Assembly (NCBI GenBank): GCA_001822075.1
Contig: MHPK01000006.1
Coordinates: 58,977-122,976 of the forward strand
DNA from: Candidatus Staskawiczbacteria bacterium RIFOXYB1_FULL_38_37
Lineage (GTDB): Bacteria > Patescibacteriota > Minisyncoccia > Minisyncoccales > Staskawiczbacteraceae
DNA: 64,000 bases
Direction: 5' to 3'
Shown: in pieces, positions 20,606 to 63,229 of the stretch
Layout: each line of letters starts with the position of its first letter
Position numbering within the stretch: the stretch's first letter is position 1
The notes under the pieces: model-generated
The model's input: only the letters and a program-made list of their open reading frames with translations
Databases searched by the model: none
Told to the model about the DNA's origin: nothing
Program-made: the position numbers and the translations under genes

Positions 20606-21148
20606 CTATGAGATGCCAATGGTATTGATGGCTGACTCGTAAACGTTTAATATTCTTTTTGCCTGTTCCAAATTTAGTTTATAGTCTGGATTGTAAACTA
20701 TGGAATTTCTTAATTCGCGCGCCCTCAAAATATCATTTAAAATTGGAGAAATCAGGCGCCCTGCCTTTTTAACAGACTCTTCAAAAGTTTTTTCTTCGAA
20801 TCCGGCATCCTCTAAAACTTCGTTTAGAAAATCATCTGCCTCTATGATGGCTAATTTTAATTCTGCTTCAGAGCCAAGTTCAATCCTTTTTTTAATCTTG
20901 CCCCAGCGCCTTGTAATCTGCCTCAACCCATAAGACTGCCACGAAAAAAATTCTGTAACATCCTCTAAAAATTTATACTGCAGCCAGCTGCTGTTTAACG
21001 TAAAATAAACAACGCCCACAAGAAAAAACATCGAAAAAACAATAAAAACCAGCTTTACAGGAAAAAGCATGTCTTGTATTTGGGGAGAAGATATAAAATA
21101 AATAAAATCTCTAATTCCGAGCAAATTGTATAATTGTTCCCAGTTCAC
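20606..21148 (-). CDS. hypothetical membrane protein
   Basis: 180 aa with an N-terminal TM helix and no recognised motif. Confidence 0.3.
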   Translation of the reverse strand: MNWEQLYNLLGIRDFIYFISSPQIQDMLFPVKLVFIVFSMFFLVGVVYFTLNSSWLQYKFLEDVTEFFSWQSYGLRQITRRWGKIKKRIELGSEAELKLAIIEADDFLNEVLEDAGFEEKTFEESVKKAGRLISPILNDILRARELRNSIVYNPDYKLNLEQAKRILNVYESAINTIGIS

Positions 21149-31070: not shown

Positions 31071-32840
31071 CTACGCCACTTCCTTATTGTAGCAATTTTT
31101 ACAATAAACTATTTCAGGACGGTCTGGGGCATAGCTTGTCTCAAACTCATTCTGGCATTTTCCTTTTCCATGGGAATGATTTTCTTTATTGCACATGCAT
31201 TCCCGATGCCAAAGCCTAATAGGCGTACGCTGGGAAAGCCGGGCGAAGTGGCGACAGTTTGGGCACATTTTCGGAATCGGAATGCCCATACGTTTATAAA
31301 AATTCAAATCGCTTGTCGTAATTTTGAAAGCTTGCGTGCATTGGTGATTACATTTTCCATCGTGGGCACACCCGATTATTTCTTTTAAAATCTGATCGCT
31401 TACCTCTTCAATAGAATCTGGAATATTTTCTGCTTTTAAAGTAACAGTATAGCTCTTTACCTCTGGCTCAAGCCACCTATATCCCTGCTTTAGCGCTTCC
31501 TCTTTTGAAATTGGAAAAAGCTCCTGCGCAATGGTTTCGTTGTATGCAAACGCATGCATGTCCAGTGGGAAAGTTGAACCATAGCGATATTCTCTTCCCA
31601 AAGCGTCTTTATAAGGCATTGCATTCATGTGCTCAATAATTTTAGGAATTAGTGCTTCGTATTCTTCTTTTGTATACTGCTTATTCAAAATACAATACTG
31701 TTTTTTGCGCAAACCGACGCAGCCGAATAAATCGGACGAACTCATGCAGTTCACGCAATATTGCGCCCGAACTAACTGGTCCCAGCATTCGTTTGAGAAA
31801 AACACTTGCGAGCATTGCCTGCCAATGCTTGAACATTCATAAATCAATTCTGAATTCTTGCCCCAATATGTATAGTCCATCACATCTTTTGCATCCATGA
31901 TTCCAAAAAGATACTTGCCGTCTTCCACTCTTTCGCAATTAAAACCAACCTGCACATTCTTGCATTCATCAAGCCAGTTACCAGAAATATTTGTACTGTG
32001 ATTTTCAACAACAGCCGGCATTATCTGCTTTTTAACAAATTCCAAAAACCTGCTTTGCATGGCCTCAATCTCGCCACGTTTTTTTGGCCACAATTTTTCA
32101 ATCTGTTTCTTATATTCTTCTTTTGTAAATTGCTCGTTGAAAATGCAATATGATTTATTGCGAAGATTCACACAGCCAAAGCAGTCATTGCAATTCAAAC
32201 AATGAAACAAAAAAGAAGAGCTCACACAACTGCCGCATTCCTGCGAATACATCAAGCGACTGCATCTGTAACAATCAATACACTCAAAACACAATTCAGA
32301 CGAATGGATATTGTAATTATCCATGCTGTCTTTTGAATCCCATACCGAAGTGCCATAAGAACAATTTTCATTATTTGCGGCAGCAAAAATAAGATAGCAA
32401 TCTTTATTGTCGCTTACCCTGTTAGTGTAATCGCTGTTTACATTTATTCCTTGCTGGATAATTCCAAGCCGGGGCACCTTTAAAAACAAATCTTTAAACT
32501 GCTGGAAAAATGGTTTTGAAAAATTATAATCTTTTGCATAAGACTGGGTATCCCATTTGTCTGACCACCAACAAGAATGGCAATAAGCAGTGTAGGGGCT
32601 ATCGGGATGATAAATTAAAATTTTATCTTGACCGCACAAATTGCATTTTCTTTTATAAAGGGCCCTCTCGCCCCTCCATGCCAAACGCTTAATAAGCCGG
32701 CATTCCGGGCACCAGGTTGGCGGGGGGACTTTCATTTTTTCGTAGAACGCAAAATCATCAGGCTCGATGGTAAACTCTTTTTTACAATTCTGGCATGCCC
32801 GCACTGAGCTTGCCGAAGTGTTATTGGTTTCGCTTTGCAT
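31071..32840 (-). CDS. cysteine-rich multi-zinc-ribbon protein, paralog P2
   Basis: 589 aa. CQNCKKEFTIEPDDFAFYEKMKVPPPTWCPECR at the N-terminus and SYAPDRPEIVYCKNCYNKEVA at the C-terminus. Confidence 0.6.
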   Translation of the reverse strand: MQSETNNTSASSVRACQNCKKEFTIEPDDFAFYEKMKVPPPTWCPECRLIKRLAWRGERALYKRKCNLCGQDKILIYHPDSPYTAYCHSCWWSDKWDTQSYAKDYNFSKPFFQQFKDLFLKVPRLGIIQQGINVNSDYTNRVSDNKDCYLIFAAANNENCSYGTSVWDSKDSMDNYNIHSSELCFECIDCYRCSRLMYSQECGSCVSSSFLFHCLNCNDCFGCVNLRNKSYCIFNEQFTKEEYKKQIEKLWPKKRGEIEAMQSRFLEFVKKQIMPAVVENHSTNISGNWLDECKNVQVGFNCERVEDGKYLFGIMDAKDVMDYTYWGKNSELIYECSSIGRQCSQVFFSNECWDQLVRAQYCVNCMSSSDLFGCVGLRKKQYCILNKQYTKEEYEALIPKIIEHMNAMPYKDALGREYRYGSTFPLDMHAFAYNETIAQELFPISKEEALKQGYRWLEPEVKSYTVTLKAENIPDSIEEVSDQILKEIIGCAHDGKCNHQCTQAFKITTSDLNFYKRMGIPIPKMCPNCRHFARLSQRTPIRLWHRECMCNKENHSHGKGKCQNEFETSYAPDRPEIVYCKNCYNKEVA

Positions 32841-50000: not shown

Positions 50001-50025
50001 CATATGTTATTGGCTCAGTCTCATA

Positions 50026-50057
50026 GACGGGTTTTTGCCGAACGGCAAAAACCCGTC
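50026..50057. terminator. palindromic terminator hairpin family F
   Basis: gacgggtttttgccgaacggcaaaaacccgtc, differing at one stem pair from 31036-31067. Confidence 0.6.
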
Positions 50058-50110
50058 TATCTTTATTTTTTTTAGCCTCACGTGAGGGGTAACGTTACTG
50101 GTTACGTAAC

Positions 50111-51772
50111 CTAAGCCACTTCACGCTGGTAGCATTCCATACAGGCTATTTTTTGAAATCCAAGTTCTGGACTATAATAATGTTCAATTTCTTTATTGCA
50201 ATGTGCGCAAATTCCGCACTGCAACTCAACCATATGGCTAAAGGGTTTGTAGTGCTCTTGTGTGCGCCAGTCAAAATGCCTGTTTGGAAGCGGAATACCG
50301 TGCTCTTTATAAAATGCCAGCTCGTCTTTTGTAATATTATAACTTAATTTGGTTTCAGGGCATAAAATACGCTGTTTTGTAATTTCATCTTTTACATCAT
50401 CTATACTATCTGGCAAAGTGTCGGCTGTTATAATGTTTTCGTAATGCGGCTTTGAAGCCTCTTCCCACTTGGCGCCAAACTGAAGGGCTTCTGTTTTTGT
50501 CATGGGAAACTGCATGTGAGCCAAAGAAAGGTTGTATCCGGAATATGCGGCTGAGAGCGGCCAAAGCCTTCCCCACTCTCCATTTTTTTTCATATCGCTC
50601 TTAATTTTTTCAACCAAACTCTCATATTCTTCTTTTGTATATTGTTTGTTCAAAACACAATATTTCTTTTTTCGTAAACCCACACAACCAAAACAATATT
50701 CAGATTCCTCGCAAAAGTCTAAATAGCTACTATAACGACAATTAGTAGTGTAAAGATTGCATAGGTTGCCGTACGCGAACTGGTCCGACGACCCAAAAGC
50801 GCACTTCTCGCTTTTAAGAGCGCCCACCGAATCAATGATTTCTTTATTCTGAAAACCTCTAAAAACGTAATGGCAATTTTCCGATTCTTCAAGAAAATAA
50901 CATTGATGGCAATTTTTATCATTCGTGATAAGGTTTCCTGTGGAATTCACCGTCTGAACATTATAATTCTGTCGGTGCACAGCATCCTGTTGGATATGCT
51001 TCCAAAATTCTTTTTTTAATTTTTCAACAGATGCTCGCGATTTTAGGTTATATTCTTCAAGCTTTTTCTCGTATTCTTCTTTGGAATATGGCTGGTTTAA
51101 AATATGGTATTTTTTATTTTTTAGATTCCAGCACATAAAACAGTTTTGGCAGTTTCGGCAGTCATATAAAAATAAGCTGTCAATGCAGTCGCGGGAATTA
51201 AAAGAATATTTTAGGTTGTAACTTTTGAAACAAAACAGGCAATCGTATGAACGCTCCAGGTCAAAAGAATAAGTTACATCAATACATTTTTTACAATTTG
51301 CTAAACGATATCCATAGATGATTGACTCAATGCGAAAAGCGGAGCGCGTAAGGTGTGCGTCTTTTGATTCCCACAAATCATCGGCCCAATCACAATTAGT
51401 ATTTTTTGTGCCGACTTGGTGAGGGTGCGGAACTTTCGATTGCAGCTCAACAAGCTGGTCAATAAATAAACGCGAGGCATCATAGTCTTTTCCATATGTG
51501 AGCGGGTCCCAGGCATCGGATACAAATTCGTTCCTTTCATAAATGGGGAAAGGAACTGATTCTGGCAGAACCGTTATAATTGTTTTGCCGCTCAAGGCCG
51601 ATTTGCCAATTCTAAATCTCCCAAACACCCAAAAAGCCAAAAGATATTTAAAGCGGCAACTGGGGCACATGGTGGGCATGGGCAAATCCATCTTTTTGTA
51701 AAGGGAAATATCATCTGAATAGATGACAAAATCTTGATTACACTTTTGGCATTGTTTGGTTTCGGTATGCAT
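50111..51772 (-). CDS. cysteine-rich multi-zinc-ribbon protein, paralog P3 (most divergent)
   Basis: 553 aa. N-terminus CQKCNQDFVIYSDD...CPSCR, internal CVLNKQYTKEEYE module, C-terminus IACMECYQREVA. Confidence 0.55.
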   Translation of the reverse strand: MHTETKQCQKCNQDFVIYSDDISLYKKMDLPMPTMCPSCRFKYLLAFWVFGRFRIGKSALSGKTIITVLPESVPFPIYERNEFVSDAWDPLTYGKDYDASRLFIDQLVELQSKVPHPHQVGTKNTNCDWADDLWESKDAHLTRSAFRIESIIYGYRLANCKKCIDVTYSFDLERSYDCLFCFKSYNLKYSFNSRDCIDSLFLYDCRNCQNCFMCWNLKNKKYHILNQPYSKEEYEKKLEEYNLKSRASVEKLKKEFWKHIQQDAVHRQNYNVQTVNSTGNLITNDKNCHQCYFLEESENCHYVFRGFQNKEIIDSVGALKSEKCAFGSSDQFAYGNLCNLYTTNCRYSSYLDFCEESEYCFGCVGLRKKKYCVLNKQYTKEEYESLVEKIKSDMKKNGEWGRLWPLSAAYSGYNLSLAHMQFPMTKTEALQFGAKWEEASKPHYENIITADTLPDSIDDVKDEITKQRILCPETKLSYNITKDELAFYKEHGIPLPNRHFDWRTQEHYKPFSHMVELQCGICAHCNKEIEHYYSPELGFQKIACMECYQREVA

Positions 51773-51781
51773 ATTTTTATC

Positions 51782-52108
51782 TTAAAATCGGTTTAAATTT
51801 GCGACGTAGTTAAAACAATAGAAGTAGTTATTCCATTTCTCGTCACTTGAACCATAAATATTATCAAAACAAAAATAATCTGACAATGCTTCTCGGACTC
51901 GCAAAAGTTCCTTCAATCTTTTTCTATTTTTCGGATCTTCTATTGTTAAATCAAGCAGCTCCAGCCCTCGTTCAAAAAAGGCGACGCCTTCTTTTTTGCT
52001 TTTTTTATTCCAATTTATGGCTCTGCCAATTTCAGCTCCAATATTTGCCATTTGTTCCACTAGCGAAAATTTAAACCATCTGTTTTTAAATTCTTTATTA
52101 AAAATCAT
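51782..52108 (-). CDS. hypothetical protein
   Basis: 108 aa. Overlaps the upstream gene by 4 nt, so probably translationally coupled within the ATPase operon. Confidence 0.35.
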   Translation of the reverse strand: MIFNKEFKNRWFKFSLVEQMANIGAEIGRAINWNKKSKKEGVAFFERGLELLDLTIEDPKNRKRLKELLRVREALSDYFCFDNIYGSSDEKWNNYFYCFNYVANLNRF

Positions 52109-52491
52109 TTTTGCACCAGCTTATTAATAATTTTTAATATTTTTTCTCTAATCTCGGCGCTATCGATTCCTCTTGTGCGGTTTCCAAGACCAGGCTTTAA
52201 ATTGATCATAGAATCAAATTCAACAAAATCATCTTCGGATTTTGCCGGCCATATATTGACTCCCCAAAGATTTTTTGGCTCAGAATTTTCTTTTTCAATC
52301 AAAACTTGCTCCAAATCAATGTGCATTTCCGCATCTACTGCCATAATTTCTTTTTCTATATCAACAACTGCCTTAACTAAATTTTCATACATTCTTTTTG
52401 CCATTTCTTTTAATTCCAGAATTGATATTTTATCTGCCCCGTTTTTTTCAGGGTCTTTTACAACTTTCATAAAATTTTTTGAGATAATCAA
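52105..52491 (-). CDS. hypothetical acidic protein
   Basis: 128 aa. Overlaps the ATPase stop by 4 nt. Confidence 0.35.
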   Translation of the reverse strand: MIISKNFMKVVKDPEKNGADKISILELKEMAKRMYENLVKAVVDIEKEIMAVDAEMHIDLEQVLIEKENSEPKNLWGVNIWPAKSEDDFVEFDSMINLKPGLGNRTRGIDSAEIREKILKIINKLVQK

Positions 52492-53963
52492 ATTAATGGT
52501 TCTTCGGGTTTGTCTTCCTTGCCCCCGCCTGAAGCTTCGGCATCATGGCGGGCAGGCTTTCCCTTGCCTTCAATTATGGATTTTTCATGCGAGCTTCTCA
52601 TAATTTTTGACTCTTCTTCTTCCATAAGTTTTTTTGCCGCCTCAGCTGGAATAGTGTACCTTGCGCGAGAGCGCTTTATAATTTCATCTTTAAAAGATTT
52701 GTGCTTTGGCGGCAAAACTTTAAGGGTTTCTGCTGAAAATGGGTCGTACGCTTCCCCATCAATAGTTTCTTTAATATAAAAATTCTGGACTCCCAGGTTT
52801 ACCATGTCTTTAACGCCGAATATCGGCGCCATTTCCGGTTCTAATTTAACCGCGTCTTCGCCGCCAACTCTAAACACAATAATGGTTCCTGTGTTTCCCA
52901 AAACTGCCTGCTGAACTTTTTCAAGAAGCTGGCCCATGTATTGGTGGGCTACGGTAAGGCAAAGTCCGTATTTGCGGGCTTCCGACAATAAGTTTTCAAA
53001 GGTTTCTGTCATAAGATTGTGGAACTCGTCAACATACAGATAAAAATCTTTTCTTTCAGATTCCGGCAGCGCGGCCCGCGCCATGCCTGCCTGCTTTAGC
53101 TTGGTAATAAACATTGAGCCAAAAAAACTGGAGTTTTCTTCTCCCAGCTTGCCTTTAGATAAGTTTATTAAAATAATTTTATCTTCATTCATTAATTTCT
53201 CCAAATCAACCTTATTTTCTTCCTGGCCAAAAATGCCCCTTAAAGCAGGGTCTGATAAAAACTGCGCTAACTTGTTAACCAAAGGAATAATGGCTTCGGT
53301 ATCATATTTTTCAGACCAGTCGGCAAACTCAATTGCCCAAAAACGTTTTACCATGTCGTCTTGGATGTATTCAACAACAAGCTGGCGGTAGTTTCTGTCG
53401 GTAAGCATGGAAATCATGCCCCGCATGGTGCCATGAGGATAATCTAAAAGCGCCAAACAAGTAAAGCGAAACACGTGCTCAAGCCTGGGCGTCCAATTGG
53501 CGCCAAATTGCTTTTCCAAAACTTCAATCAATCCCTGAGTCAGCTGATGCTTAAAGCCCGGGTCAATGTTAGCCAAAGGATTAAAAGAAATAGGATATTT
53601 TGAATCAGAGGGGTCAATAAGCACTACGTCGTCTATGCGCTCTTCTGGAATGAAGTGCAAAATTTCCTCTATAACGTCGCCGTGAGGGTCAATAAAACAA
53701 ACTCCGTGGCCATATCCAAGGTCTTGGCGAACAAAAAGCTCTAAAAGCTTAGACTTGCCCACTCCGGATTTACCGACAATGTACACGTGCCTGCGCCTGT
53801 CTATCCTCTTAATTCCAAAGATAAACTTTTGCTCCTGCAAAGCAGCCTCATAATTGGTTTTGCCGATAAAAGAACAATCTTCGGAGTCTACTGACCCATA
53901 AACAGGAAGCTCGGGAGGCGGAGGAGCCAATTTAAATCTACGAATTCTTTTATTATCTGCCAT
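52488..53963 (-). CDS. P-loop ATPase, VirD4/TraG/TraD-like (T4SS coupling-protein-like, FtsK/HerA superfamily), no TM segment; copy 1
   Basis: Walker A VGKSGVGKS, Walker B-like FYLYVDEFHN, VAHQYMGQL (TQSxxQL-like). Paralog of 59378..61408. Confidence 0.55.
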   Translation of the reverse strand: MADNKRIRRFKLAPPPPELPVYGSVDSEDCSFIGKTNYEAALQEQKFIFGIKRIDRRRHVYIVGKSGVGKSKLLELFVRQDLGYGHGVCFIDPHGDVIEEILHFIPEERIDDVVLIDPSDSKYPISFNPLANIDPGFKHQLTQGLIEVLEKQFGANWTPRLEHVFRFTCLALLDYPHGTMRGMISMLTDRNYRQLVVEYIQDDMVKRFWAIEFADWSEKYDTEAIIPLVNKLAQFLSDPALRGIFGQEENKVDLEKLMNEDKIILINLSKGKLGEENSSFFGSMFITKLKQAGMARAALPESERKDFYLYVDEFHNLMTETFENLLSEARKYGLCLTVAHQYMGQLLEKVQQAVLGNTGTIIVFRVGGEDAVKLEPEMAPIFGVKDMVNLGVQNFYIKETIDGEAYDPFSAETLKVLPPKHKSFKDEIIKRSRARYTIPAEAAKKLMEEEESKIMRSSHEKSIIEGKGKPARHDAEASGGGKEDKPEEPLI

Positions 53964-54059
53964 GTTTTTGTAACTTAAAATTATTAGCTTATCATAGCTT
54001 TTTTACGCCTCTTTATCAAGTTAAACAACTAAAAAGCCGTTCGGGACGGCTAGTATTTT

Positions 54060-54386
54060 TTATTTTAAATAATCTTCAATTTTATCAATTAAGTCAGGGA
54101 TATCCATTTGCATGGTATTCCAAATCTGGACTAAATCAATGTCAAAATATTCGTGAACAGCCATATTGCGAAAACCCATAATCATACGCCACGGCAAATC
54201 AATTGCTAATTTTATTTCTTCGGGCAGCTTTTTTGCTTCTTCTCCAATCACAATCAATTTCATAATAACCGCGCTTTGAGTTTTATTGTCAGCCAAAAAA
54301 TCTTTCTTCGACATTTTGTCACAATATCCAATCGCCTCATTTGCCTTATCAACAATATTTTTTAAATATATATTGCTATCTTTCAT
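54060..54386 (-). CDS. HEPN/DUF86-family protein (toxin-like)
   Basis: 108 aa, RNMAVHEY (Rx4-6H). Confidence 0.65.
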   Translation of the reverse strand: MKDSNIYLKNIVDKANEAIGYCDKMSKKDFLADNKTQSAVIMKLIVIGEEAKKLPEEIKLAIDLPWRMIMGFRNMAVHEYFDIDLVQIWNTMQMDIPDLIDKIEDYLK

Positions 54387-54720
54387 AAATTAAAGTTAGG
54401 TCTTTTTCAATGTATGGCTTAATATATTTATTTATCGCTCTGTCAGAAACCAGGTCAACATTTTTTCCCAAAGCGTCTTCCAAGTCATACTTAAGGCCGA
54501 TAAATTTATAGACCCCCATTTCGTCGCCCAAACGGACTAAAAAATCAATATCACTATCCGGCCCGTTCTCCCCTCTGGCGGCGCTGCCAAAAACCGCGGC
54601 AGATTGAATGCCATATTTTTTAAAGACAGGAGCAGATTTTTTTTTGATAATTTCTATATCCATTTTTTTGACGCCTCGCGGACACATTTTTAATATAACA
54701 TAAAATTTATAAAATTTCAA
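54376..54720 (-). CDS. minimal nucleotidyltransferase (MNT; antitoxin-like partner of the HEPN protein)
   Basis: FGSAARGENGPDSDIDFLV. Confidence 0.7.
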   Translation of the reverse strand: MKFYKFYVILKMCPRGVKKMDIEIIKKKSAPVFKKYGIQSAAVFGSAARGENGPDSDIDFLVRLGDEMGVYKFIGLKYDLEDALGKNVDLVSDRAINKYIKPYIEKDLTLIYER

Positions 54721-54775
54721 TTACTTTAAGTCCGACGGCTGGCGACCGCCAGCATTTGAGAAAAAATTGCTTTTA

Positions 54776-55099
54776 TTAACTGGTGGCGGCAATCAGCCAG
54801 TCTTTGAAATCCCTATTCAGACGATACAGCGAAATAGTTGCCATGCAGGGAACACCACCCTGGTAATACTCTCTGACAATATCCTCTATGCCTTGGACAT
54901 GCTTGTCTATGGTCATAATAATCATAGTTGCCCCCGGAGCCTCCACAACTCCGCCTGCCTGCGCAGACAGGCCGTTGTCCCGAGAAACTGAATTGGTGAG
55001 CATAATGTCCACTTTGCCCGCCATTCTTTTTTCCACCAAAATTTTGGCAATAATTTTGGCCGTATCCAAATTCTGACACGGCACATAAATAAATATCAT
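54776..55099 (-). CDS. cutA: CutA1-like divalent-cation tolerance protein (GC-elevated)
   Basis: 107 aa. MIFIYVPC...A..IAK.L....A and the C-terminal YQGGVPCMATISLYRLNRDFKDWL fit the CutA pattern. Confidence 0.5.
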   Translation of the reverse strand: MIFIYVPCQNLDTAKIIAKILVEKRMAGKVDIMLTNSVSRDNGLSAQAGGVVEAPGATMIIMTIDKHVQGIEDIVREYYQGGVPCMATISLYRLNRDFKDWLIAATS

Positions 55100-55142
55100 T
55101 TACCCTGGCCTTATGAAGGCCTATATTAAATCGACCTTTACC

Positions 55143-55185
55143 CCGTTAGAAATTACGCTGTATGAGCTATTTCTAACGGGGTTTA
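55143..55185. repeat. inverted repeat hairpin (ccccgttagaaat / atttctaacgggg) immediately 3' of P4
   Basis: accccgttagaaattacgctgtatgagctatttctaacggggt. Related arms ccccgttagaagt / acttctaacgggg at 47027-47123. Confidence 0.6.
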
Positions 55186-55187
55186 TT

Positions 55188-56840
55188 TTACGCTACTTCT
55201 TGATTGTAGCAACTTTTGCATAAAATATCTTTTACTTCCTCTTCAGGATAGTGGGTTTGAAATTCAGCGCCGCATTTAGAGCAGGTTCTCTTGTACAGCC
55301 TCAACTGCTTAACCCAACGATTAAACTTTTCTTGAATACGGCAGAATGGACATTTTCTTGGCAAAGGAAAATTCATATTTCTCAAAAAATTCAACTCTGC
55401 TTTTATAATTTTAAATCCCTTTTTGCAATTTTGACATTCTATTACTTCGTTCAAAATCTCGTCAGAAGCATCTTTTATATGGTCTGGCAAATCGCTGGGT
55501 TTTTTTGTAATTTGATATTGCGCGATTTTTATTTCTGTTCGGTTTTGTGGATAAAAACTCTGAGCAATTGTGTCATTATATGCAAACGGACTTAAATTTA
55601 TCGGAAAAAATTCTCCATACTCTTTTCTTTCCTTCATCTGTTCAATAATTTTTGCCTTTAAGGTATTATAATCTTCTTCTGAATAACGCTTGTTAAGAAT
55701 GCAATAACTTCCACTTTTAATTGACATACAACCAAAAAGATGAGAGGTGCGACCATAACAAGAAACAGAATATTCAATATCGCGCGCTCCATGTCCGCCA
55801 CTAAGGCAGAACTTTAATTCAGATGCCCCCTCGCCGCACGAACAACATTCATAACACAAAGAAACATTGTTGCCCCAAGCTGTAAAATCATATGTGTCTT
55901 TAATCGGCGAAAGATAAGCCAAAGAAATATATTTTGAATTCTCAGCTCCCTCTACCTCAAAACATTGCTGGCAATTTTTGGATTGAAAAACATAACTGCC
56001 CAGGCAATTAACCGAAAAATCGTCATACGCGGGGCGGGGCGGAAATTTTTTCCAGTGTTCCTCTGCTCGCCTTTTAATTTCCTGATATGTTGCGTATGAA
56101 CCCAAATCCCATTTTTTAATTTCCTCAAAATAAGTTTCTTTGGTATAAGGTTTATTAAAAATATAATATTTTTTGTTTCTTAAATTCGCGGAAGCAAAAC
56201 AGTCTTGGCAATTATCTGAATCCCTTAGAAAAAAACAATTCAGCGACTCTGTAACGTTTCCCTTTGTGCCAGCGCATCGGTTGCATCTGAACAAATTAGT
56301 TGCGTCAAAACAAAAATCTGACTGCATTGCCATTGAAACATCAAGCAAAGATTTGTTCTTTAAAAGATAATGGCCATACATGCAGTCTTCGTTGAAGTCG
56401 CCAAAAAAAATCAAATAACAATTTTTAAGATGTCCAACTTGATTAGTGTAGTCTGAATTCTCTAATGTAGCATAATCAGCATCAAGACCCAGCTGGGGTA
56501 CCTGATGCCAAAACTCATTAAATTGGTCAAAAAATGGCCTGGAAAAATCATAATCTCGGCCATACGAAAACGGGTCCCAATCGTCAGACCACCAACATTT
56601 TGCGCAGTACACTTTATATGGTGAATCCGCAGAATGAGCTAAAATCAGTTCCTTCTGACAAAAATCACACTTGCGCTTGTAAAGTTTAAACATATTATAA
56701 AACGCCATGCGTCTTTGCCTCCTGCACTCTGGGCAAAAAGTCGGCGGCGGAACTTTTATCTTTTCGTAGAATGCAAAATCATCGGCTTCAATTACAAAGT
56801 CCTTTTTGCAGTTCTGGCATTGTTTGGTTTCGGAATTCAT
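55188..56840 (-). CDS. cysteine-rich multi-zinc-ribbon protein, paralog P4
   Basis: 550 aa. CQNCKKDFVIEADDFAFYEKIKVPPPTFCPECR at the N-terminus and CKSCYNQEVA at the C-terminus. Confidence 0.6.
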   Translation of the reverse strand: MNSETKQCQNCKKDFVIEADDFAFYEKIKVPPPTFCPECRRQRRMAFYNMFKLYKRKCDFCQKELILAHSADSPYKVYCAKCWWSDDWDPFSYGRDYDFSRPFFDQFNEFWHQVPQLGLDADYATLENSDYTNQVGHLKNCYLIFFGDFNEDCMYGHYLLKNKSLLDVSMAMQSDFCFDATNLFRCNRCAGTKGNVTESLNCFFLRDSDNCQDCFASANLRNKKYYIFNKPYTKETYFEEIKKWDLGSYATYQEIKRRAEEHWKKFPPRPAYDDFSVNCLGSYVFQSKNCQQCFEVEGAENSKYISLAYLSPIKDTYDFTAWGNNVSLCYECCSCGEGASELKFCLSGGHGARDIEYSVSCYGRTSHLFGCMSIKSGSYCILNKRYSEEDYNTLKAKIIEQMKERKEYGEFFPINLSPFAYNDTIAQSFYPQNRTEIKIAQYQITKKPSDLPDHIKDASDEILNEVIECQNCKKGFKIIKAELNFLRNMNFPLPRKCPFCRIQEKFNRWVKQLRLYKRTCSKCGAEFQTHYPEEEVKDILCKSCYNQEVA

Positions 56841-56876
56841 AATTAAAAAATATCAGATTAAACAGATTAAACAGAA

Positions 56877-56910
56877 AGTTAGTTTTTTGGCTCGAGCCAA
56901 AAAACTAACT
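56877..56910. terminator. perfect 34-bp palindrome, family E hairpin
   Basis: agttagttttttggctcgagccaaaaaactaact. Confidence 0.55.
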
Positions 56911-57444
56911 CAACTTATATCTTAGTTTGATTTTTTCTTGATTATCAATAAAATTAAGCAATCCAAACCGGATATATTTTTCCAAATTAAACAGTCTGGC
57001 AAAATCATCAATTTCTTTCTTGCAATCATACGGATGCAGAAATAGGCTTTCCTGCAACTCATAAAATCCTCCCATTTTTAATCTGTATCGCAATGCATTT
57101 CTGTCTTTTCTATGAGAATTAGGAATATCAAAAGCCACCATTCTCCATTTTCCATCCCATTTCCCTTTTTTATGACCCAATCGCCTAAATCTAAAATTTA
57201 TAACTCGCAGAATTCCTTTTTCAGTAAGAGAAACTAAAATTGATCCTTCGTAATTTTTCTTTTTTTCCAATAGCTTTTGTTTTTTGAGATCTGTCACTGC
57301 AGAAATTAACTGTTTTGATGTAAAACCATGAATGCCTTTTATTGCGTCGTTTAGTAAAATAAGCCGAGCGTCTCCATGGCGACCAACTTTTTCGCTGCTT
57401 GCGTAATATATTCTCCATAATATTTCTTCAACAATTTTATTCAT
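56905..57444 (-). CDS. PaaX-like protein: N-terminal winged-helix + C-terminal Cas2/VapD-like domain
   Basis: WRMVAFDIPNSHRKDRNALRYRLKMGGFYELQESLFLHPYD resembles the Cas2-type beta-alpha core. N-terminal HTH-like region. Confidence 0.4.
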   Translation of the reverse strand: MNKIVEEILWRIYYASSEKVGRHGDARLILLNDAIKGIHGFTSKQLISAVTDLKKQKLLEKKKNYEGSILVSLTEKGILRVINFRFRRLGHKKGKWDGKWRMVAFDIPNSHRKDRNALRYRLKMGGFYELQESLFLHPYDCKKEIDDFARLFNLEKYIRFGLLNFIDNQEKIKLRYKLS

Positions 57445-57477
57445 GCTTCCATTATATAAAACAGATATGAAATAGTA

Positions 57478-57507
57478 AACTTTTTGGCTCGAGCCAAAAA
57501 ACTAACC
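57478..57507. terminator. family E palindromic hairpin (second copy flanking the PaaX-like gene)
   Basis: aaactttttggctcgagccaaaaaactaacc. Confidence 0.55.
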
Positions 57508-57528
57508 TAATTATTACCTACATTTTAT

Positions 57529-59244
57529 TTAAGCTACTTCGGCGTTGTAACAGCTTTCGCAATAAATAATCTCCGGCCTGTCCGGAGCATATGAGGTTTT
57601 TATTTCTTTTCCGCATTTGGCGCATTGGCGGTCCCAAAGCTTAAATGGCGTGCGCTGGGCAAGCCTTCTATAATGCCTACAGTTAGAGCATAGCCTTGGC
57701 AAAGCAAGATTCATTTTTCTGTAAAATTCAAGCTCAGAGAGAATAATTTTGAATGCACCCATACATTGTTCGTTGCAATTACCCTGATGTTCGCACTCTA
57801 TTACCTGATTTAAAATATTGTCTTTTACGTTTTTTATGTGGTCTGGCAAGTCAGCAGCTTTAAGCGTGATGGAATAATTTTTTATGTCAGGCTCTCTCCA
57901 CTTGTACCCTTTTTCCAAAATTTCTGATTTTGTTTTTGGGTAATATTCCTGGGCGATCGTTTCGTTGTAAGCAAAAGGCGATATTTCAGATGGAAAAAAT
58001 TCTCCGTATTTATACACTCTTCCCTTTTTATCTACATAAGGCATGTCATTCATATGAGCAATTACTTTAGGAACAAGTTCTTCATATTCTTCTTTGGTGT
58101 AATGTTTGTTTAAGATACAATATTTTTTGCTGCGAAGCCCCACGCATCCAAACAAATTTGCTGAATTTTTGCACGCATAAGTATAATTTGTATTTTGACA
58201 AGAATGAGTAAAAACGGCAAAAAAATTGCGAGTAGCGTTATCTCCAGTATCCATAACTTCATAAGAATTGTCGTGGGTTGCGCCTACGCCCGGACCGCCA
58301 TCATAAATATCATGCAAAGGCCCCACAGCATGCAATATGTACTTACAACCTTCAGCTCCCCCGAATATATCAAACCCCATATAAACGTTTTTAGAATTAA
58401 GAATATTATTTCCAATGCAATTCACTGATTTATAAATAAATCCGTAGCGCCTTGGATATTGCATTATAAATTCGGCTAATTTTTTTCTGAAATCAGTAAG
58501 CCCTTTATAACTTCCAAAGTCATATTTATTCCGCTCTTTTGCATATTCTTCTTTTGTGTATTGCTGGTTAAAAATACAGTTTGACTTGTTTCGCAAATTT
58601 ATACAACCCAAAGAATCTATCATATTTTTGCATGCATGCAAAAATGCGCAGTTAACACTTTCGTCACTATCATAAGAAAAGTAAATTCGATTTAAATCTC
58701 CGCACGCAGTATTATCGTAACATTGCATCTGATTAAAAGCTAAATATAAATCAAGAGAATTTTTACAATTTACGGCTCCGCGAGAATAACTTAAATCTTC
58801 ATCTGTCATAGAGGCATATACAAGATAGCAATTTTTCATATCAAGGTTATGATTTCCGTATTCAGAATTTACTACATTAGAATTAGCGAGATTAGGAAGA
58901 GGAGCTTTTTTGAACAGTTCATGAAATTGCTGAAAAAACGGTTTTGAAAAATCATAATCCATTCCAGACTCAAGCTGATCCCATTTGTCTGACCACCAAT
59001 AATCTCTTTCATAAACCAAGAGTGGCTGTTCTGGAGAAAACATCGTAATAATATCTTTGCCGGTGGCATTACACTTTCTATGATATAGAGTTCGCTCGTT
59101 TCTCCAACTCATTCGCCGTACAATCCTGCACTCTGGACAAAATGTCGGCGGCGGGACTTTTATCTTTTCATAGAACGCAAAGTCATCGGGCTCGATAATA
59201 AACTCGTTATGGCAGTTTTGACATTGTCTAGTCTCTGATTGCAT
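57529..59244 (-). CDS. cysteine-rich multi-zinc-ribbon protein, paralog P5
   Basis: 571 aa. CQNCHNEFIIEPDDFAFYEKIKVPPPTFCPECR at the N-terminus and SYAPDRPEIIYCESCYNAEVA at the C-terminus. Confidence 0.6.
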   Translation of the reverse strand: MQSETRQCQNCHNEFIIEPDDFAFYEKIKVPPPTFCPECRIVRRMSWRNERTLYHRKCNATGKDIITMFSPEQPLLVYERDYWWSDKWDQLESGMDYDFSKPFFQQFHELFKKAPLPNLANSNVVNSEYGNHNLDMKNCYLVYASMTDEDLSYSRGAVNCKNSLDLYLAFNQMQCYDNTACGDLNRIYFSYDSDESVNCAFLHACKNMIDSLGCINLRNKSNCIFNQQYTKEEYAKERNKYDFGSYKGLTDFRKKLAEFIMQYPRRYGFIYKSVNCIGNNILNSKNVYMGFDIFGGAEGCKYILHAVGPLHDIYDGGPGVGATHDNSYEVMDTGDNATRNFFAVFTHSCQNTNYTYACKNSANLFGCVGLRSKKYCILNKHYTKEEYEELVPKVIAHMNDMPYVDKKGRVYKYGEFFPSEISPFAYNETIAQEYYPKTKSEILEKGYKWREPDIKNYSITLKAADLPDHIKNVKDNILNQVIECEHQGNCNEQCMGAFKIILSELEFYRKMNLALPRLCSNCRHYRRLAQRTPFKLWDRQCAKCGKEIKTSYAPDRPEIIYCESCYNAEVA

Positions 59245-59257
59245 ATTTATTTTGTTT

Positions 59258-59314
59258 CACTTAGATTTCTCATGTCATTTCTACTGTCAAATGACAGTGA
59301 ATGTTTTATTTTAA
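59258..59314. promoter_or_regulatory. motif D copy 4, directly upstream of P5 (best-preserved; 16-bp perfect palindrome ACTGTCAAATGACAGT)
   Basis: cacttagatttctcatgtcatttctactgtcaaatgacagtgaatgttttattttaa. Minus strand gives TTGACA overlapping the palindrome, 60 nt upstream of the ATG. Confidence 0.55.
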
Positions 59315-59377
59315 TATATCAAAAAACCCCGAAATCCGCCAGCTGGCGGAAACGGGGCCAAATCACAAATTACAAAA

Positions 59378-61408
59378 TTATAGTTTGACAGACTCGCCTG
59401 GCTTTAGGGGCTTCTTGTCCGCCTGATTGCCCGCACTTTCGGCGGGCTTTCCCGAGCCCTTAAACTTGTCTTCTGCTGCCATTTTATCTTCATATTTTTC
59501 CTGTTCAATCCTGTCTTTTAATTCTTCCTCTGGCGTTTTTTCGTTTTGTTCTTCTGAGATTTTTGTGTTGGTTGCAGCTAATGATTCTTCCAATGCCTTT
59601 TTTAAATCAGATAAATTAATTTCTTTTCTTTGCTTTGACGGGGCATTGCCCTGCTTTGGCGAAGGCGAAGTAAAACCTGAATGCTGGCCATCTTTTGTTT
59701 TTGGCTTGTGAAATGGAACGTTCTCTAATTTAGCTTCCTCGCCAGAAAAATTCTGATTAGAACGGGAAGGAGCGCCAAATTCTATACCCAAATCTGCCAA
59801 AGCGCTATCCCCTTTTGTCCTGTTTGTCTCCCGGCGAGCTGACGCGCCCGCCTGCACAGGCAGGTTAAACGCCCCCTTATATGCTGCCGGTGATTTTAAT
59901 TTTTCTTCCTGTATTTTTTTCAGGCAGGCTTTGCAATAAACAGCTCTGCCGGGTTCTGGCGGAAAAATAACTTTTGTTGACTTGCCACAGTTGGAACATA
60001 CAGCATCATACAGCTTGGTAGAATTAGGATTAGAAGAGCGGGAGCTGTTGGATTGGTACATGGGTTTGGTAGATTTCTGGGGATTAGAAAGGTCGGAAGC
60101 ATTGGAAACAGGAATATCCCTATTAGCTGCCCAGCGGTTAATTTCTTCTTCTACGGCTTTTACGTTGCGGGCGTACTTTAACCTGGACGTATTAATTATT
60201 TCATCTCTCTTTTTATCGTCTTTAGCAATGGGCGCCAATGTAATGGTTCTGGCAGAAAACGGCCTGGAAGTAATGCCGTCTATCATAAGTTTCATATAAA
60301 CATTGCGGTTATCCAGGCGGATTAAATCGGTTTGCTCAAATTCCGGCGTGAATTCCTGCTCTAAAAATTCGGCATCAGCTGCGCCCACTCTAAAAGAAAG
60401 CATAGTTCCCACGTTGCCAAAAACAGCATCTCTAACAGCAGTGCTCTCTCCTGTAACCAGCTGGCCGACATATTGATGGGCAATAACCAGATCCAAGCGG
60501 TATTTGCGCGCCTCTGACAAAATGTTCACGAAAGAATCTGTGGCAAAATTTTGGAACTCGTCAACATACAGATAAAAATCTTTTCTTTCGTCTTCGGGGA
60601 TTCTAACGCGCTCCATGGCCGAGAGCTGTATTTTTGTAATAAGCATGGCTCCCAAGATGGCTGAATTATCTTCGCCAATTCTCCCTTTAGAAACATTGAC
60701 CAAAAGAATTTTTTGATTATTCATTATATCTTCAATATCAATGGTATTTTTAGCTTGCCCCACAATATTTCTGACAAAAGAAACATTCAAAAACTGCCCA
60801 ACTTTATTTTGAACTGGGGCTATGGCTTCGTTGCGATATCTAGAGTCCCATTCTTCGTATTCGTTCACCCAAAATGATTTTACAACCGGGTCATTGAGAT
60901 TATTGATAATTTTTTGCCGGTAGTCTCTGTCAACAAGCATTCTTGGTATGCCAAGCAATGTGGTGCCTGGAGTATCCAGCAAAGCTAAAATGCAATTGGC
61001 AAGAATGTATTCCATGCGGGCTGACCACACGTTGGCCCAAATTTTGGTAAAAATGCCAATCAATCCCGATGCAATCAGGTGCTTATATCTTGGATCTGCC
61101 ACATCCATAATATTAAAGCTAACGGGATGCTGCATATCCACTGGATTAAAATAAACCACATCCTTTATTCTGTGCGAAGGGATGCTTTCTAAAATTTCTT
61201 CAACAAACTCGCCATGAGGGTCAATAATAGCAAGCCCTTCCCCGTTATCAATATCCTGCAGGGCCATATTTTTTAAAAAGCCTGTTTTACCAACTCCGGT
61301 TTTTCCAATCACATACATGTGCTGGCGCCTATCGTTCCTTTTAATTCCAAACTTTTGTTCAGCTCCGCGGAAGTTTGTTTGGGCAATATAAGTTAAATCT
61401 TTAGACAT
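59378..61408 (-). CDS. P-loop ATPase, VirD4/TraG/TraD-like, copy 2, with long low-complexity C-terminal tail containing a CxxC...CxxC zinc ribbon
   Basis: IGKTGVGKTG Walker A, FYLYVDEFQN, IAHQYVGQL. C-terminal CSNCGKSTKVIFPPEPGRAVYCKAC. Confidence 0.55.
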   Translation of the reverse strand: MSKDLTYIAQTNFRGAEQKFGIKRNDRRQHMYVIGKTGVGKTGFLKNMALQDIDNGEGLAIIDPHGEFVEEILESIPSHRIKDVVYFNPVDMQHPVSFNIMDVADPRYKHLIASGLIGIFTKIWANVWSARMEYILANCILALLDTPGTTLLGIPRMLVDRDYRQKIINNLNDPVVKSFWVNEYEEWDSRYRNEAIAPVQNKVGQFLNVSFVRNIVGQAKNTIDIEDIMNNQKILLVNVSKGRIGEDNSAILGAMLITKIQLSAMERVRIPEDERKDFYLYVDEFQNFATDSFVNILSEARKYRLDLVIAHQYVGQLVTGESTAVRDAVFGNVGTMLSFRVGAADAEFLEQEFTPEFEQTDLIRLDNRNVYMKLMIDGITSRPFSARTITLAPIAKDDKKRDEIINTSRLKYARNVKAVEEEINRWAANRDIPVSNASDLSNPQKSTKPMYQSNSSRSSNPNSTKLYDAVCSNCGKSTKVIFPPEPGRAVYCKACLKKIQEEKLKSPAAYKGAFNLPVQAGASARRETNRTKGDSALADLGIEFGAPSRSNQNFSGEEAKLENVPFHKPKTKDGQHSGFTSPSPKQGNAPSKQRKEINLSDLKKALEESLAATNTKISEEQNEKTPEEELKDRIEQEKYEDKMAAEDKFKGSGKPAESAGNQADKKPLKPGESVKL

Positions 61409-61431
61409 AACATAATACTAATATGCTAATT

Positions 61432-62823
61432 TTATATTGGTAAATTAGGTGGAGGGCCTCCTTTTTTTGATTCAATTGTTGTTAAAGCAGGGGCCAACAT
61501 TCCTTTTGTTGACAGCGGGAAGTGGAACATGGTAGCCATTTCTTCTGAGCTTAATATGGGGCATGACTCGCGCCTGTCCGGAAACAAAGGCTGATACCTT
61601 AAAACAGCATTCCTAAACATTTTTCTTGACCTCAAAAATCCCCTTCTTTGCCTCCAGAAAAAATGAACTTTTGGACGAGATTTTCTTACAAACCCAAAAC
61701 TATTCAAGTTATCTGTAAGAAAATGGCCCATATAAGACCTCATCAAAACTCTGTTAGAAGCATTCCACGAATCTCTTTTAGCAACATAAAGCCCTCTTAT
61801 ATTTGTTCGCCATGCGGGCTTTTTCAATTTATTTTCAACTTCTGTTATAACTTCTCTTTCGCCTGGAGTCAGCGATATCTTCAGCTCGCCTGTTTCTTCG
61901 TCCTCTTCTATTCGCTCCCAAGAATATTTTGCAGATTCCCCAGAGCCTTCTTTTTCAGGGCCCAAAACAACTTGCCTTGCCACATACCACAAATCTTCCA
62001 AAAACGTTGTTTCTTTTTTTTCAGGGCGCCTTGCTATTTTGTTAACTATTTTTTGGCCTTCTTGTCTATAGTTTGGCTCATCACGATCCGAAACAGGAAT
62101 TGAAGTAAACTGCACCCAATAATGCTCGCCTGGCCCCAGTTTTGACATTCCTTCCAACAAACTAATTATTGGGTCTAATCTTTTTTCTTCTGCTTGTATT
62201 CTTTCTCCCTGCGGTTCAAAAAACTTCTCGTATGTTTTTATAGGATATTGATCGGTTTTTCTTAGCTCCCAATCTTCTCCATAGGCATCCCATTCTTCGT
62301 TTGGAACTGTTTGGGGAACCAGCTTTGTATAATCTGGCGCTTCATTAATTTCTATATCAGGATAATGGCCAAAAAGCGCAGATTCAAAGGCTGTTCTGTG
62401 GTGCTGACCAACTCTTAAATAATAGTGTATTTTGCCCTCTATGCTAGCTATTTCCCATGAGCACCACTCAGGACCATAAGACAATTCCCCTTCGCACCAA
62501 ATTTCACGAAAGTTTGCTCCGTCAATAATAGGCCAAACAGAAGAAATCACGTCTTCCATAGCTTTGAAGGGAGCTAGCACTTCTTTTGGCGGAGTTATTT
62601 CCAAAAGCACCCATTTTCTTTTAGCAATAAAAAAATCCCAGCCAGCCCACCACAAATAAACTGCTTTTAACTGGGCTTGCAGCATTATGGGCAAAAACAC
62701 CCACCACCAAACTCTTAAAAACGGAACCCATAAAATAATCAAAAATAAAATCAGCCACCAAAAAGGGTCCAAAATCATTTTTTTAGCCCATTCTAACCAA
62801 AATAGCCACTCTGGTAATTTCAT
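61432..62823 (-). CDS. polytopic membrane protein (2-3 N-terminal TM helices + large soluble domain); possibly the split-off membrane module of the downstream ATPase
   Basis: W-rich TM segments (FWWLILFLIILWVPFLRVWWWVFLPIML). C-terminal ILSSEEMATMFHFP motif. Its stop lies 24 nt from the ATPase start. Confidence 0.4.
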   Translation of the reverse strand: MKLPEWLFWLEWAKKMILDPFWWLILFLIILWVPFLRVWWWVFLPIMLQAQLKAVYLWWAGWDFFIAKRKWVLLEITPPKEVLAPFKAMEDVISSVWPIIDGANFREIWCEGELSYGPEWCSWEIASIEGKIHYYLRVGQHHRTAFESALFGHYPDIEINEAPDYTKLVPQTVPNEEWDAYGEDWELRKTDQYPIKTYEKFFEPQGERIQAEEKRLDPIISLLEGMSKLGPGEHYWVQFTSIPVSDRDEPNYRQEGQKIVNKIARRPEKKETTFLEDLWYVARQVVLGPEKEGSGESAKYSWERIEEDEETGELKISLTPGEREVITEVENKLKKPAWRTNIRGLYVAKRDSWNASNRVLMRSYMGHFLTDNLNSFGFVRKSRPKVHFFWRQRRGFLRSRKMFRNAVLRYQPLFPDRRESCPILSSEEMATMFHFPLSTKGMLAPALTTIESKKGGPPPNLPI

Positions 62824-62826
62824 AAA

Positions 62827-63048
62827 TTAAAAAATAGAATTAATAAAATAAGGCAAATAATTTACAACAAGAGCTATAATTGCAACTATTAAAAATCCTA
62901 TTGCAAAAAATTCAAAAGTAAAAATCGCCGGCACAACAATAAAAGTAACTTTTTTCAAATGCCAGTAATAAATAAAAGAAAAGAAAATTATAAAAAATAT
63001 CGCTGTCGCTATAAATAAAATAACAAGCAGTATGCTAAAAATATCCAT
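62827..63048 (-). CDS. small integral membrane protein (2 TM)
   Basis: 73 aa, almost entirely hydrophobic. Stop is 4 nt from the next gene. Confidence 0.35.
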   Translation of the reverse strand: MDIFSILLVILFIATAIFFIIFFSFIYYWHLKKVTFIVVPAIFTFEFFAIGFLIVAIIALVVNYLPYFINSIF

Positions 63049-63229
63049 AGAAGTATTTTTATTACTTTATTATAAAACAATAAAAAATTACAATCAATAT
63101 TACAAATTATGCACATTATACAACAGAAATGCACTCGCCCAATGACTATCGCTTTTATTAAAACAATATTATTTCCTTTTAGCCCATAAAAACTTGGAAA
63201 GTCGTTTTATTATATGATAGGATAAAATC

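Follow-up and report, generated by a model that had tools for sequence, protein, structure and literature searches.

A 64,000-nucleotide stretch of the genome of Candidatus Staskawiczbacteria bacterium RIFOXYB1_FULL_38_37 (contig MHPK01000006.1, positions 58,977 to 122,976 of the forward strand; hereafter the window) carries a block of 13 genes around two ATPases, which we designate ATP1 and ATP2. Encoded with them are a membrane protein of family DUF8128, a 73-aa transmembrane (TM) protein (TM73), and P3, P4 and P5, paralogues of a large Cys-rich zinc-finger protein whose other copies in the window, P1 and P2, lie outside the block (Table 1). According to our analysis, this locus is chromosomal and vertically inherited and derives from a monoderm conjugative type IV coupling protein (T4CP), which is now distributed over separate genes. 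The former C-terminal motor, of TrwB type, is present as two paralogues, ATP1 and ATP2, and the DUF8128 protein is the former N-terminal half, comprising a membrane anchor and, as its predicted structure suggests, a VirB4/EccE-like cytoplasmic domain. Tandem arrays of P genes persistently accompany those of the motor, and we see even chances that the P proteins are functional partners or clients of the split motor, be it as cargo or as adaptors.

The decisive evidence for the split comes from gene fusions. A DUF8128 hidden Markov model (HMM) matches the N-terminal halves of 790-921-aa ATPase homologues at three other Patescibacteria loci (L036, L040 and L076; E 1e-18 to 1e-22), as well as two plasmid proteins, each in its N-terminal third, namely an 833-aa 'DUF87' protein encoded on pBM69 of Bacillus methanolicus (E 4.9e-13) and an Embleya protein of 812 aa. 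The genes of both plasmid proteins adjoin a replication-relaxation gene and other conjugation or conjugal-transfer genes. Both halves are likewise found within one PHROGs family, phrog_5156 (824 positions), which DUF8128 matches at positions 79-289 and ATP1 at 385-812. The junction of the fused proteins reads ...HFP...LKSxEAPPPxxLP...; in the window, the C-terminus of the DUF8128 protein reads ...ESKKGGPPPNLPI and the N-terminus of ATP1 ...KLAPPPPELPVYG. All ATP1-type homologues keep the junction motif PPPxxLP, and no ATP2-type homologue does. An earlier note on this DNA, made from its letters without database searches, had proposed that the membrane protein upstream may supply the TM module that the ATPases lack, and this proposal is strongly supported by the fusions together with the predicted fold match described below.

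By their motor domain both ATPases are T4CP-like, as judged from sequence comparison. The Pfam family TrwB_AAD_bind was matched by ATP2 at 7.6e-15 and by ATP1 at 1.9e-11 (55.1 and 43.9 bits, the cut-off being 20.5), and TraG-D_C and T4SS-DNA_transf also exceeded their gathering cut-offs. The TrwB_AAD_bind alignments cover profile positions 10-311 and 15-330 of 387, and an inserted all-alpha domain as in T4CPs may be present. TrwB was the best solved relative in the PDB, both by single sequence and by a profile of 21 sequences, and the NCBI family name of the ATPases is 'type IV secretion system DNA-binding domain-containing protein'. The resemblance to T4CPs recognized in the earlier note is thereby confirmed, and the motifs on which it was founded are present in the translations, namely Walker A (GKSGVGKS and GKTGVGKT), YLYVDEF(H/Q)N and AHQY(M/V)GQL. 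The lack of TM helices stated there is confirmed as well, as the hydropathy of either protein shows no hydrophobic or TM segment. A firm affiliation with FtsK/HerA helicases, which the same note had weighed, was not borne out: the DUF87/HerA matches in Pfam are weaker (E 4e-5 to 6e-6, vs 1e-11 to 1e-15 for TrwB_AAD_bind), and neither HerA nor FtsK chains were among the PDB profile matches.

The two ATPases are 45% identical to each other and differ at their ends. ATP2 carries behind its motor core a zf_Tbcl_2 finger (1.6e-11, 44.1 bits against a cut-off of 27), and a tail finger of the form CxxC-x15-20-CxxC, one per protein, is found in 17 of 24 ATP2-type homologues. ATP1 is 75-91% identical across many candidate phyla, while at comparable distances P orthologues share ~45-60% and DUF8128 proteins just ~25-29% of their residues. 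In the alignment of ATP1 proteins, the extreme C-terminus (...E-P-L-I) is nearly invariant and stands behind a variable acidic/Gly-rich tail, a pattern that suggests a peptide-docking motif.

The DUF8128 protein has a 100% identical counterpart in Candidatus Staskawiczbacteria bacterium RIFOXYC1_FULL_37, which agrees with a Paceibacteria-type Patescibacteria genome as the source of the window, and PF26449 is assigned to the identical database protein and to many homologues. It had been described in the earlier note as W-rich and polytopic. With 25 Trp it is indeed W-rich, but its sole hydrophobic stretch is an N-terminal anchor at residues ~13-48, followed by a soluble (cytoplasmic) domain of ~390 aa. 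A profile of the family found no relative among PDB sequences. The predicted model, which is of moderate confidence, resembles EccE of the type VII secretion system (T7SS) and may resemble some part of the VirB4-type protein TrwK. Derivation of DUF8128 from a degenerate ATPase was considered and ruled out, as hhalign against the ATPases recovered the PPPxxLP motif only and no domain homology. TM73, with two hydrophobic segments, has homologues in the same position at four Staskawiczbacteria-type loci and no family match in Pfam or NCBIfam. A different small TM protein, of 156-179 aa, is encoded between DUF8128 and ATP1 elsewhere; its homologue in the window is displaced and without a Pfam match. 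At L018, L038, L066, L071 and L077 the C-terminal domain of this protein is helical and contains a conserved (A)HxxRNxLxH, that is, an HEPN-like Rx4H motif, which is lost in the displaced copy (RELRNSIVY, the His gone).

We compared 80 P loci from species-representative genomes and counted 195 P genes in them, with as many as nine in one tandem array. An ATPase homologue lies within 10 kb of a P gene in 33 of these loci, against an expectation of ~3-4 if a genome of 0.6-1 Mb has two ATPase genes, and in 18 of the 34 loci having their full 20-kb context. Seen from the other side, a P gene is no more than 300 nt away for 30 of 49 ATPase genes. When the search was started in reverse from seven ATP1 genes of diverse lineages, DUF8128 and the gene of the 156-179-aa TM protein were immediately upstream in all seven, and a P array was immediately downstream in six, the exception being Jorgensenbacteria. 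Co-occurrence of P proteins and ATPases, proposed as a check in the earlier note, is thus seen across many Patescibacteria lineages.

Two gene orders recur. The first reads [grpE], P, a divergent paaX-like gene, dnaK, ATP2, P, (P), ATP1, dnaJ, and the second secD, secF, a Sigma70_r4/HARE-HTH gene, [ATP2], DUF8128, the small TM gene, ATP1, CutA and a series of P genes. P genes are also present at loci with a fused T4CP. Since the linkage is found in both orders and at the fused loci, it survives rearrangement. The motor and the P proteins further have a domain in common, as the finger type of the ATP2 tail, zf_Tbcl_2, is also that of the C-terminus of every P protein.

The first order, between dnaK and dnaJ, was observed in a Nomurabacteria-type lineage (L007, L008, L016, L022, L042, L050, L053, L056, L060, L063, L070, L072 and L074), with grpE and the divergent PaaX-like gene upstream. 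Altogether, dnaK, dnaJ or grpE adjoin ~30 of the 80 P loci. This adjacency may reflect a coupling to Hsp70 or a chaperone role, or it may be inherited synteny, given that in the other order (L066 and L077) secDF is directly preceded by dnaK-dnaJ. In L081-L084 and L089 a 340-aa protein with Sigma70_r4 and HARE-HTH domains is always encoded between secF and the DUF8128/ATPase module, and it is a candidate for a dedicated regulator. At L084, a VKOR gene precedes secD.

The five P paralogues of the window (the other four are 33-46% identical to P5) share one architecture. The AlphaFold2 model of P5 is confident (predicted local distance difference test, pLDDT, 84.5; predicted template modelling score 0.84) and shows, in order, an N-terminal treble-clef finger, a second ribbon, a segment reading WWSDxWD, a pair of homologous beta-solenoid modules that carry Cys/Asn ladders, and two C-terminal fingers. 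The internal duplication pointed out in the earlier note is real: half-vs-half BLASTP gave E 1e-13 to 1e-24 in P1, P2, P3 and P5 and a weaker 5.5e-5 in P4, and the duplicated module ends in ...C(I/V)(L/F)N(K/Q)xY(T/S)KEEY. The 55-60 Cys per protein given there are too many, the actual numbers being 28-40 in the window with a median of 33 among 168 homologues. The first of the two zinc ribbons assigned to the N-terminus, a CxxC...CxxC finger, is universal, but the second, which keeps its ligands in P1, P2 and P4, is degenerate in P3 and P5. Invariant Cys are C8, C11, C36, C39, C544, C562 and C565, C541 is present in at least 90% of members, and the Cys of the solenoid are poorly conserved.

At the other end of the protein, the conserved SYAPDRPEI(V/I)YC of the earlier note holds for P1, P2 and P5, whereas P3 and P4 share CxxCYxxEVA only. 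The interpretation of this tail as a type IV secretion system (T4SS) substrate signal does not hold, as the C-terminal ~90 residues are modelled as zinc fingers (pLDDT ~80-93) and the same finger occurs in the cytoplasmic ATP2. With the treble-clef models zf_Tbcl and zf_Tbcl_2 (TIGR04272, CxxC-x17-CxxC), P proteins score 16.7-22.7 bits, which is below the cut-off, and 24 and 15 of 40 members match the two models. P proteins have neither a signal peptide, as noted before, nor a hydrophobic or TM segment. Even Cys counts occur in 54% of the 168 proteins, and the missing even-number bias weakens the idea of P as a disulfide-rich exported protein. The proteins are near neutral (pI 6.5-7.1), on which ground we rejected the solenoid as a DNA mimic.

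The view that P proteins cannot be assigned to any characterized family stands, as nothing outside the terminal zinc fingers was matched. Pfam searches with 40 aligned P proteins (E 0.5) returned zinc-finger families only and NCBIfam only TIGR04272, below its cut-off. Against the PDB, the P5 sequence gave LIM-type finger noise or nothing, and Foldseek with the P structure returned nothing significant. PADLOC and PHROGs yielded nothing except a weak match of P3 to phrog_15341, whose function is not known. IMG/VR contained one partial match only, so the family is not viral. Homologues of P5 make up at least 7,987 clusters at 90% identity; every one is named hypothetical, and they come from Patescibacteria throughout save a few labels that resemble mis-binning; organism labels of some metagenome-assembled genomes were taken as deposited and are possibly wrong. 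A profile search gave 4,918 clusters at 50% identity, and the matches listed are mostly of full length (~545-600 aa, some shorter fragments) and have a single architecture. In the searchable literature on DUF8128, PF13451/zf_Tbcl/TIGR04272 and Cys-rich or zinc-ribbon families of Parcubacteria, neither the P family nor its tie to orphan T4CPs is described, as far as we could find.

Some of the P paralogues are ancient, as comparison of orthologues at distant loci indicates. P3-type orthologues at L077, L081 and L090 are 44-55% identical to P3 and just ~29-34% to the other paralogues. P4-type orthologues are 54-58% identical at the distant loci L077, L081 and L082, and P2-type proteins behave likewise.

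Among known systems, those nearest to the motor are the DUF8128-ATPase fusions that monoderm plasmids encode as coupling proteins and the T4CPs of the TraJ/TraI type that lack a TM domain. The latter rely on a membrane protein made separately and form an accepted subclass (PMC7434980). Like TrwB, VirD4, TraG and TraD, the ATPases have a P-loop motor of TrwB type, including Walker A and B, and like TraJ of pIP501, which works with the membrane protein TraI, they are soluble with the membrane protein encoded separately. This partner is a 463-aa DUF8128 protein and not a small TM protein as in TraJ/TraI. Unlike in classical T4CPs, a TM domain in cis is missing from ATP1 and ATP2, for which DUF8128 would supply the anchor in trans, and there is no linkage to a relaxase or VirB4 within the 64 kb. 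Further differences from T4CPs are the chromosomal, vertically inherited and very conserved locus, its flanking P arrays, and the duplication into ATP1 with its PPPPELP N-terminus and ATP2 with its zinc-finger tail. The pBM69, Embleya and phrog_5156 proteins share with the window both domains, their order and the region of the junction motif. In the plasmids, these form one polypeptide encoded beside replication-relaxation, PrgI-family and VirB4-like genes of a conjugation module, whereas here they are split, duplicated and accompanied by P genes.

A likeness to the ESX/T7SS, by analogy only, may be seen in the FtsK/HerA-superfamily motor, the EccE-like membrane protein and the paralogous neighbour arrays. 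The EccE likeness of DUF8128 would be structural only and comes from the moderate-confidence model. EccB, EccD, MycP and WXG100-type substrates are lacking, and the ATPase is single-domain and T4CP-type. A precedent for P proteins as adaptors is DotL of Legionella, a T4CP whose C-terminal extension recruits the zinc-binding DotN and adaptors that select cargo. P proteins, by contrast, are much larger and multi-copy. Beta-solenoids such as curli CsgA, left-handed beta-helix acyltransferases and insect antifreeze proteins gave low scores against P; none of them has terminal zinc fingers, and the catalytic motif of the acyltransferases is absent from P.

We posit the following mechanism. Rings of ATP1 and ATP2 would be held at the membrane by DUF8128 together with the small TM proteins, and P proteins would be the clients of this motor, docking via their conserved zinc-finger ends. 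The variable solenoid face of each ancient paralogue would confer specificity, and the clients would either be handed over as cargo or serve as adaptors for cargo or nucleic acids. If there is export, it would most plausibly proceed via an MPF-FATA-type T4SS that is encoded elsewhere, near the replication origin, in most Patescibacteria.

Several observations weigh against such a partnership. Adjacency and the shared finger, both read from sequence, are the only links between P proteins and ATPases, and the naive binomial probability of 2e-21 for 33 of 80 loci overstates the significance, as the loci are phylogenetically related. At the Jorgensenbacteria locus L083, the motor module is present with no P gene within 10 kb, and P copies far from any ATPase are many, among them P1 and P2 in the window and four tandem copies in L001. 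A VirB4-sized ORF, a relaxase or a channel component was not found in the window, where no ORF reaches 700 aa. Tightly folded zinc-binding domains and a conservation of 44-58% for individual paralogues across orders are unlike typical T4SS effectors. Finally, a T4CP homologue was non-essential in a transposon sequencing study of Saccharibacteria, as cited in PMC12102498.

Concerning the nature of the partnership, P proteins might be cargo that is exported or injected into a host by the split T4CP via a distal T4SS or another channel, the solenoid acting outside in the manner of an adhesin or effector. Among solved structures, the beta-solenoids most similar to that of P are largely found outside the cell or at its surface (CsgA, adhesins, antifreeze proteins), and conserved ends, a variable middle and multi-copy arrays beside a coupling ATPase resemble substrate loci of T7SS and T4SS. 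The putative likeness of DUF8128 to EccE would fit, as would the frequent position of the module beside secD-secF, once with VKOR, and close to dnaK/dnaJ. Of 3,035 Patescibacteria genomes, 2,417 (~80%) have genes of a VirB4-based T4SS, usually near the replication origin (PMC12102498), so that a distal T4SS is available as a candidate exit route. We nevertheless regard export as cargo as rather unlikely, because the P C-terminus is a folded finger shared with a cytoplasmic ATPase and not a disordered signal, because the even-Cys bias expected of disulfide-bonded exported proteins is missing, and because the paralogues are old and conserved and not fast-evolving. The poorly conserved solenoid Cys and the missing signal peptide also speak against it. 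Exaptation of T4CPs was raised as a possibility by the authors of PMC12102498. Our own most far-reaching proposal would be that in Paceibacteria-type Patescibacteria an exapted, split and duplicated coupling protein (DUF8128 with ATP1/ATP2) gates an unrecognized protein-delivery pathway whose cargo is the 5-10 P paralogues per genome, bound for the surface or the host; this we put forward tentatively and consider doubtful.

Alternatively, membrane-tethered T4CP-type rings could move DNA in uptake, segregation or export without a T4SS, with P proteins as zinc-finger accessories that bind nucleic acid and replace the relaxase at its position in the genome. T4CPs belong to the FtsK/HerA superfamily and are DNA-dependent ATPases (PMC7434980), a relaxase-type gene adjoins the fused T4CP in the plasmid relatives where P sits in these bacteria, each P protein has three or four zinc-finger modules, and the extreme conservation of ATP1 fits a housekeeping role. 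Such a function appears improbable to us in view of the near-neutral P proteins, which match no DNA-binding, nuclease or relaxase family, and of 5-10 paralogues per genome, which are hard to explain for a DNA pilot. Still less probable is an adjacency of P and ATPase genes without functional link, arising from frozen gene order or a tandem-duplication hotspot. Long conserved blocks are found in Patescibacteria, where secDF, dnaK/dnaJ, cysS and AI-2E genes recur at the same loci, and many P genes are not near an ATPase, but the adjacency outlasts rearrangement (dnaK-ATP2-P-ATP1-dnaJ, secDF-DUF8128-ATP1-P and the fused-T4CP loci), the finger domain is common to ATP2 and P, and overlapping ORFs link ATP1 and P3 in the window. 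A conflict or defence system made up of a HerA/mad8-like ATPase, toxin-antitoxin modules and diversified zinc-finger sensors is hardly credible, since the weak PADLOC matches of the ATPases (mad8 4.4e-15, HerA 1e-5), the two NTase/HEPN pairs inside P arrays and the Cas2-like domain of the PaaX-like protein are set against an ATP1 that is near-universal (PMC12102498) and 75-91% identical across candidate phyla, a P family without PADLOC match and essentially absent from viral contigs, and an NTase/HEPN pair that recurs in none of the 80 loci.

The features of the locus are compiled in Table 1. The 13 ORFs listed in the earlier note were recovered in the same order and position, all on the - strand; its description of them as a single operon-like array was not upheld. 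Co-directionality says nothing on operons here, because the - strand carries nearly every long ORF of the 64 kb and the GC skew is negative over the full window. Strong terminator-like hairpins follow P5 (57503-57478), the PaaX-like gene (56911-56876), HepT (54051-54035) and P3 (50023-50060), and these predicted structures divide the block into at least four transcription units. Tight coupling is confined to two groups of genes, TM73-DUF8128-ATP2 (gaps of 3 and 23 nt) and ATP1-DUF5674-o108-P3 (4-nt overlaps and a 9-nt gap).

Table 1. Features of the 13-gene block and related genes in the window (positions counted from its first nucleotide).
Feature	Position	Strand	Basis or remark
Block of 13 ORFs	50111-63048	all -	ORF translation list
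TM73, 73 aa, two hydrophobic segments	62827..63048	-	3 nt upstream of DUF8128 gene
DUF8128 (PF26449) membrane anchor, 463 aa	61432..62823	-	C-terminal end ...ESKKGGPPPNLPI
ATP2, T4CP-like ATPase core ~1-430, zf_Tbcl_2 finger 465-498, K/E/S/P-rich tail	59378..61408	-	Pfam
P5, zinc-finger / duplicated beta-solenoid / double zinc-finger, 571 aa	57529..59244	-	
PaaX_M/Cas2-like winged-helix protein	56905..57444	-	Pfam PaaX_M 2e-20
P4 paralogue, 550 aa	55188..56840	-	42% identical to P5
CutA1	54776..55099	-	Pfam CutA1 2.8e-8
NTase/HepT pair (MNT/HEPN)	54060-54720		Pfam; between CutA and ATP1
ATP1, T4CP-like ATPase, N-terminal junction motif KLAPPPPELPVYG	52488..53963	-	Pfam, PDB, homologue comparison
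DUF5674 protein	52105..52491	-	Pfam DUF5674 2.4e-27; overlaps ATP1 by 4 nt
o108, 108-aa ORF	51782..52108	-	overlap-coupled between DUF5674 and P3
P3 paralogue, 553 aa, ancient distinct orthologue group	50111..51772	-	33% identical to P5
Terminator-like hairpin, 17-bp stem	50023-50060		closes block after P3
P2 paralogue, 589 aa, 40 Cys, outside block	31071..32840	-	tblastn 46% to P5
P1 paralogue, 573 aa, 38 Cys, outside block	28189..29910	-	tblastn 46% to P5
Homologue of the small TM protein (156-179 aa) found between DUF8128 and ATP1 elsewhere; displaced here	20606..21148	-	tblastn 26%, E 2e-13

The remaining genes of the block include, at most, recurrent accessories, namely those of the PaaX-like, DUF5674 and CutA proteins. 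The PaaX-like gene is a separate unit between identical palindromic hairpins, is present in ~10 of the 80 loci, usually divergent from dnaK, and encodes a possible regulator. CutA1 directly follows ATP1 in four of the seven diverse ATP1 loci and is present in six of the 80 P loci, and DUF5674 adjoins P genes in four. For o108, there was no family match and no homologue in the 80 loci. Pfam agrees with the earlier identification of CutA, the PaaX/Cas2-like protein and the MNT/HEPN (NTase/HepT) pair. A counterpart of this pair at 54060-54720 was found in none of the 80 loci, which argues against its membership in the system. A second HEPN/NTase pair was observed at 29897-30914, between P1 and P2, and both pairs look like inserted modules of toxin-antitoxin type that do not belong to the system.

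The window contains three copies of a 20-nt palindrome, TTTTTGGCTCGAGCCAAAAA, where none is expected. The copies at 57481-57500 and 56884-56903 are perfect and form long hairpins on both sides of the PaaX-like gene, and the third (49871-49890), situated between P3 and pgk, has one mismatch. The palindrome may represent a terminator element resembling repetitive extragenic palindromes or the footprint of a small insertion. Near the block, only one gene is clearly on the + strand, an ORF at 63230-64000 that runs off the window end and reads MKKHNLLQRTIKGENS...ILKLGGSIITEK...LLHGAGSFGH; judging by these residues, it looks like an amino-acid/isopentenyl-phosphate kinase. The interval 63049-63230, with two 10/12 sigma-70-like matches, is a putative promoter region shared by this kinase-like ORF and the divergent TM73. 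The neighbours of the block in the window have housekeeping functions (ftsZ, enolase, gatA, mreB, murA, frr, pgk and alaS). In FtsZ (6191-7873, - strand), the Tubulin/FtsZ_C domains start at residue 117, behind a Lys-rich N-terminal extension of ~115 aa (MAKPKKARLKIY...KKNIKK...). A PemK/MazF-type toxin gene (33073-33462, - strand) directly upstream of mreB is a further element of toxin-antitoxin type.

The system had been called undescribed in the earlier note. This is no longer accurate for the orphan T4CPs of Patescibacteria, which have already been published, but it holds for the P and DUF8128 partners, which do not appear there (PMC12102498). In that study, 5,713 VirD4-type T4CP homologues were counted in 2,918 of 3,035 Patescibacteria genomes, with 148 of them near virB4. 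Almost every genome thus has about two such homologues far from T4SS genes, and their role was posed as a question (PMC12102498). The ~90 related loci of our analysis tie the orphan T4CPs to a DUF8128 half, to small TM proteins and to tandem P arrays, and narrow the question to testable protein pairs, that is, the P termini against ATP1, ATP2 and DUF8128. They also document a clear gene-fission event in a secretion ATPase and provide a domain-level definition for a family that has so far been labelled 'hypothetical protein', and that we estimate to make up roughly 1-2% of these sub-megabase genomes. If P proteins are cargo or adaptors, they would be prime candidates for mediators of the symbiotic lifestyle. 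If there is a delivery pathway, the function of the orphan T4CPs would be named, and P would be the first candidate substrate family of a Patescibacteria T4SS.

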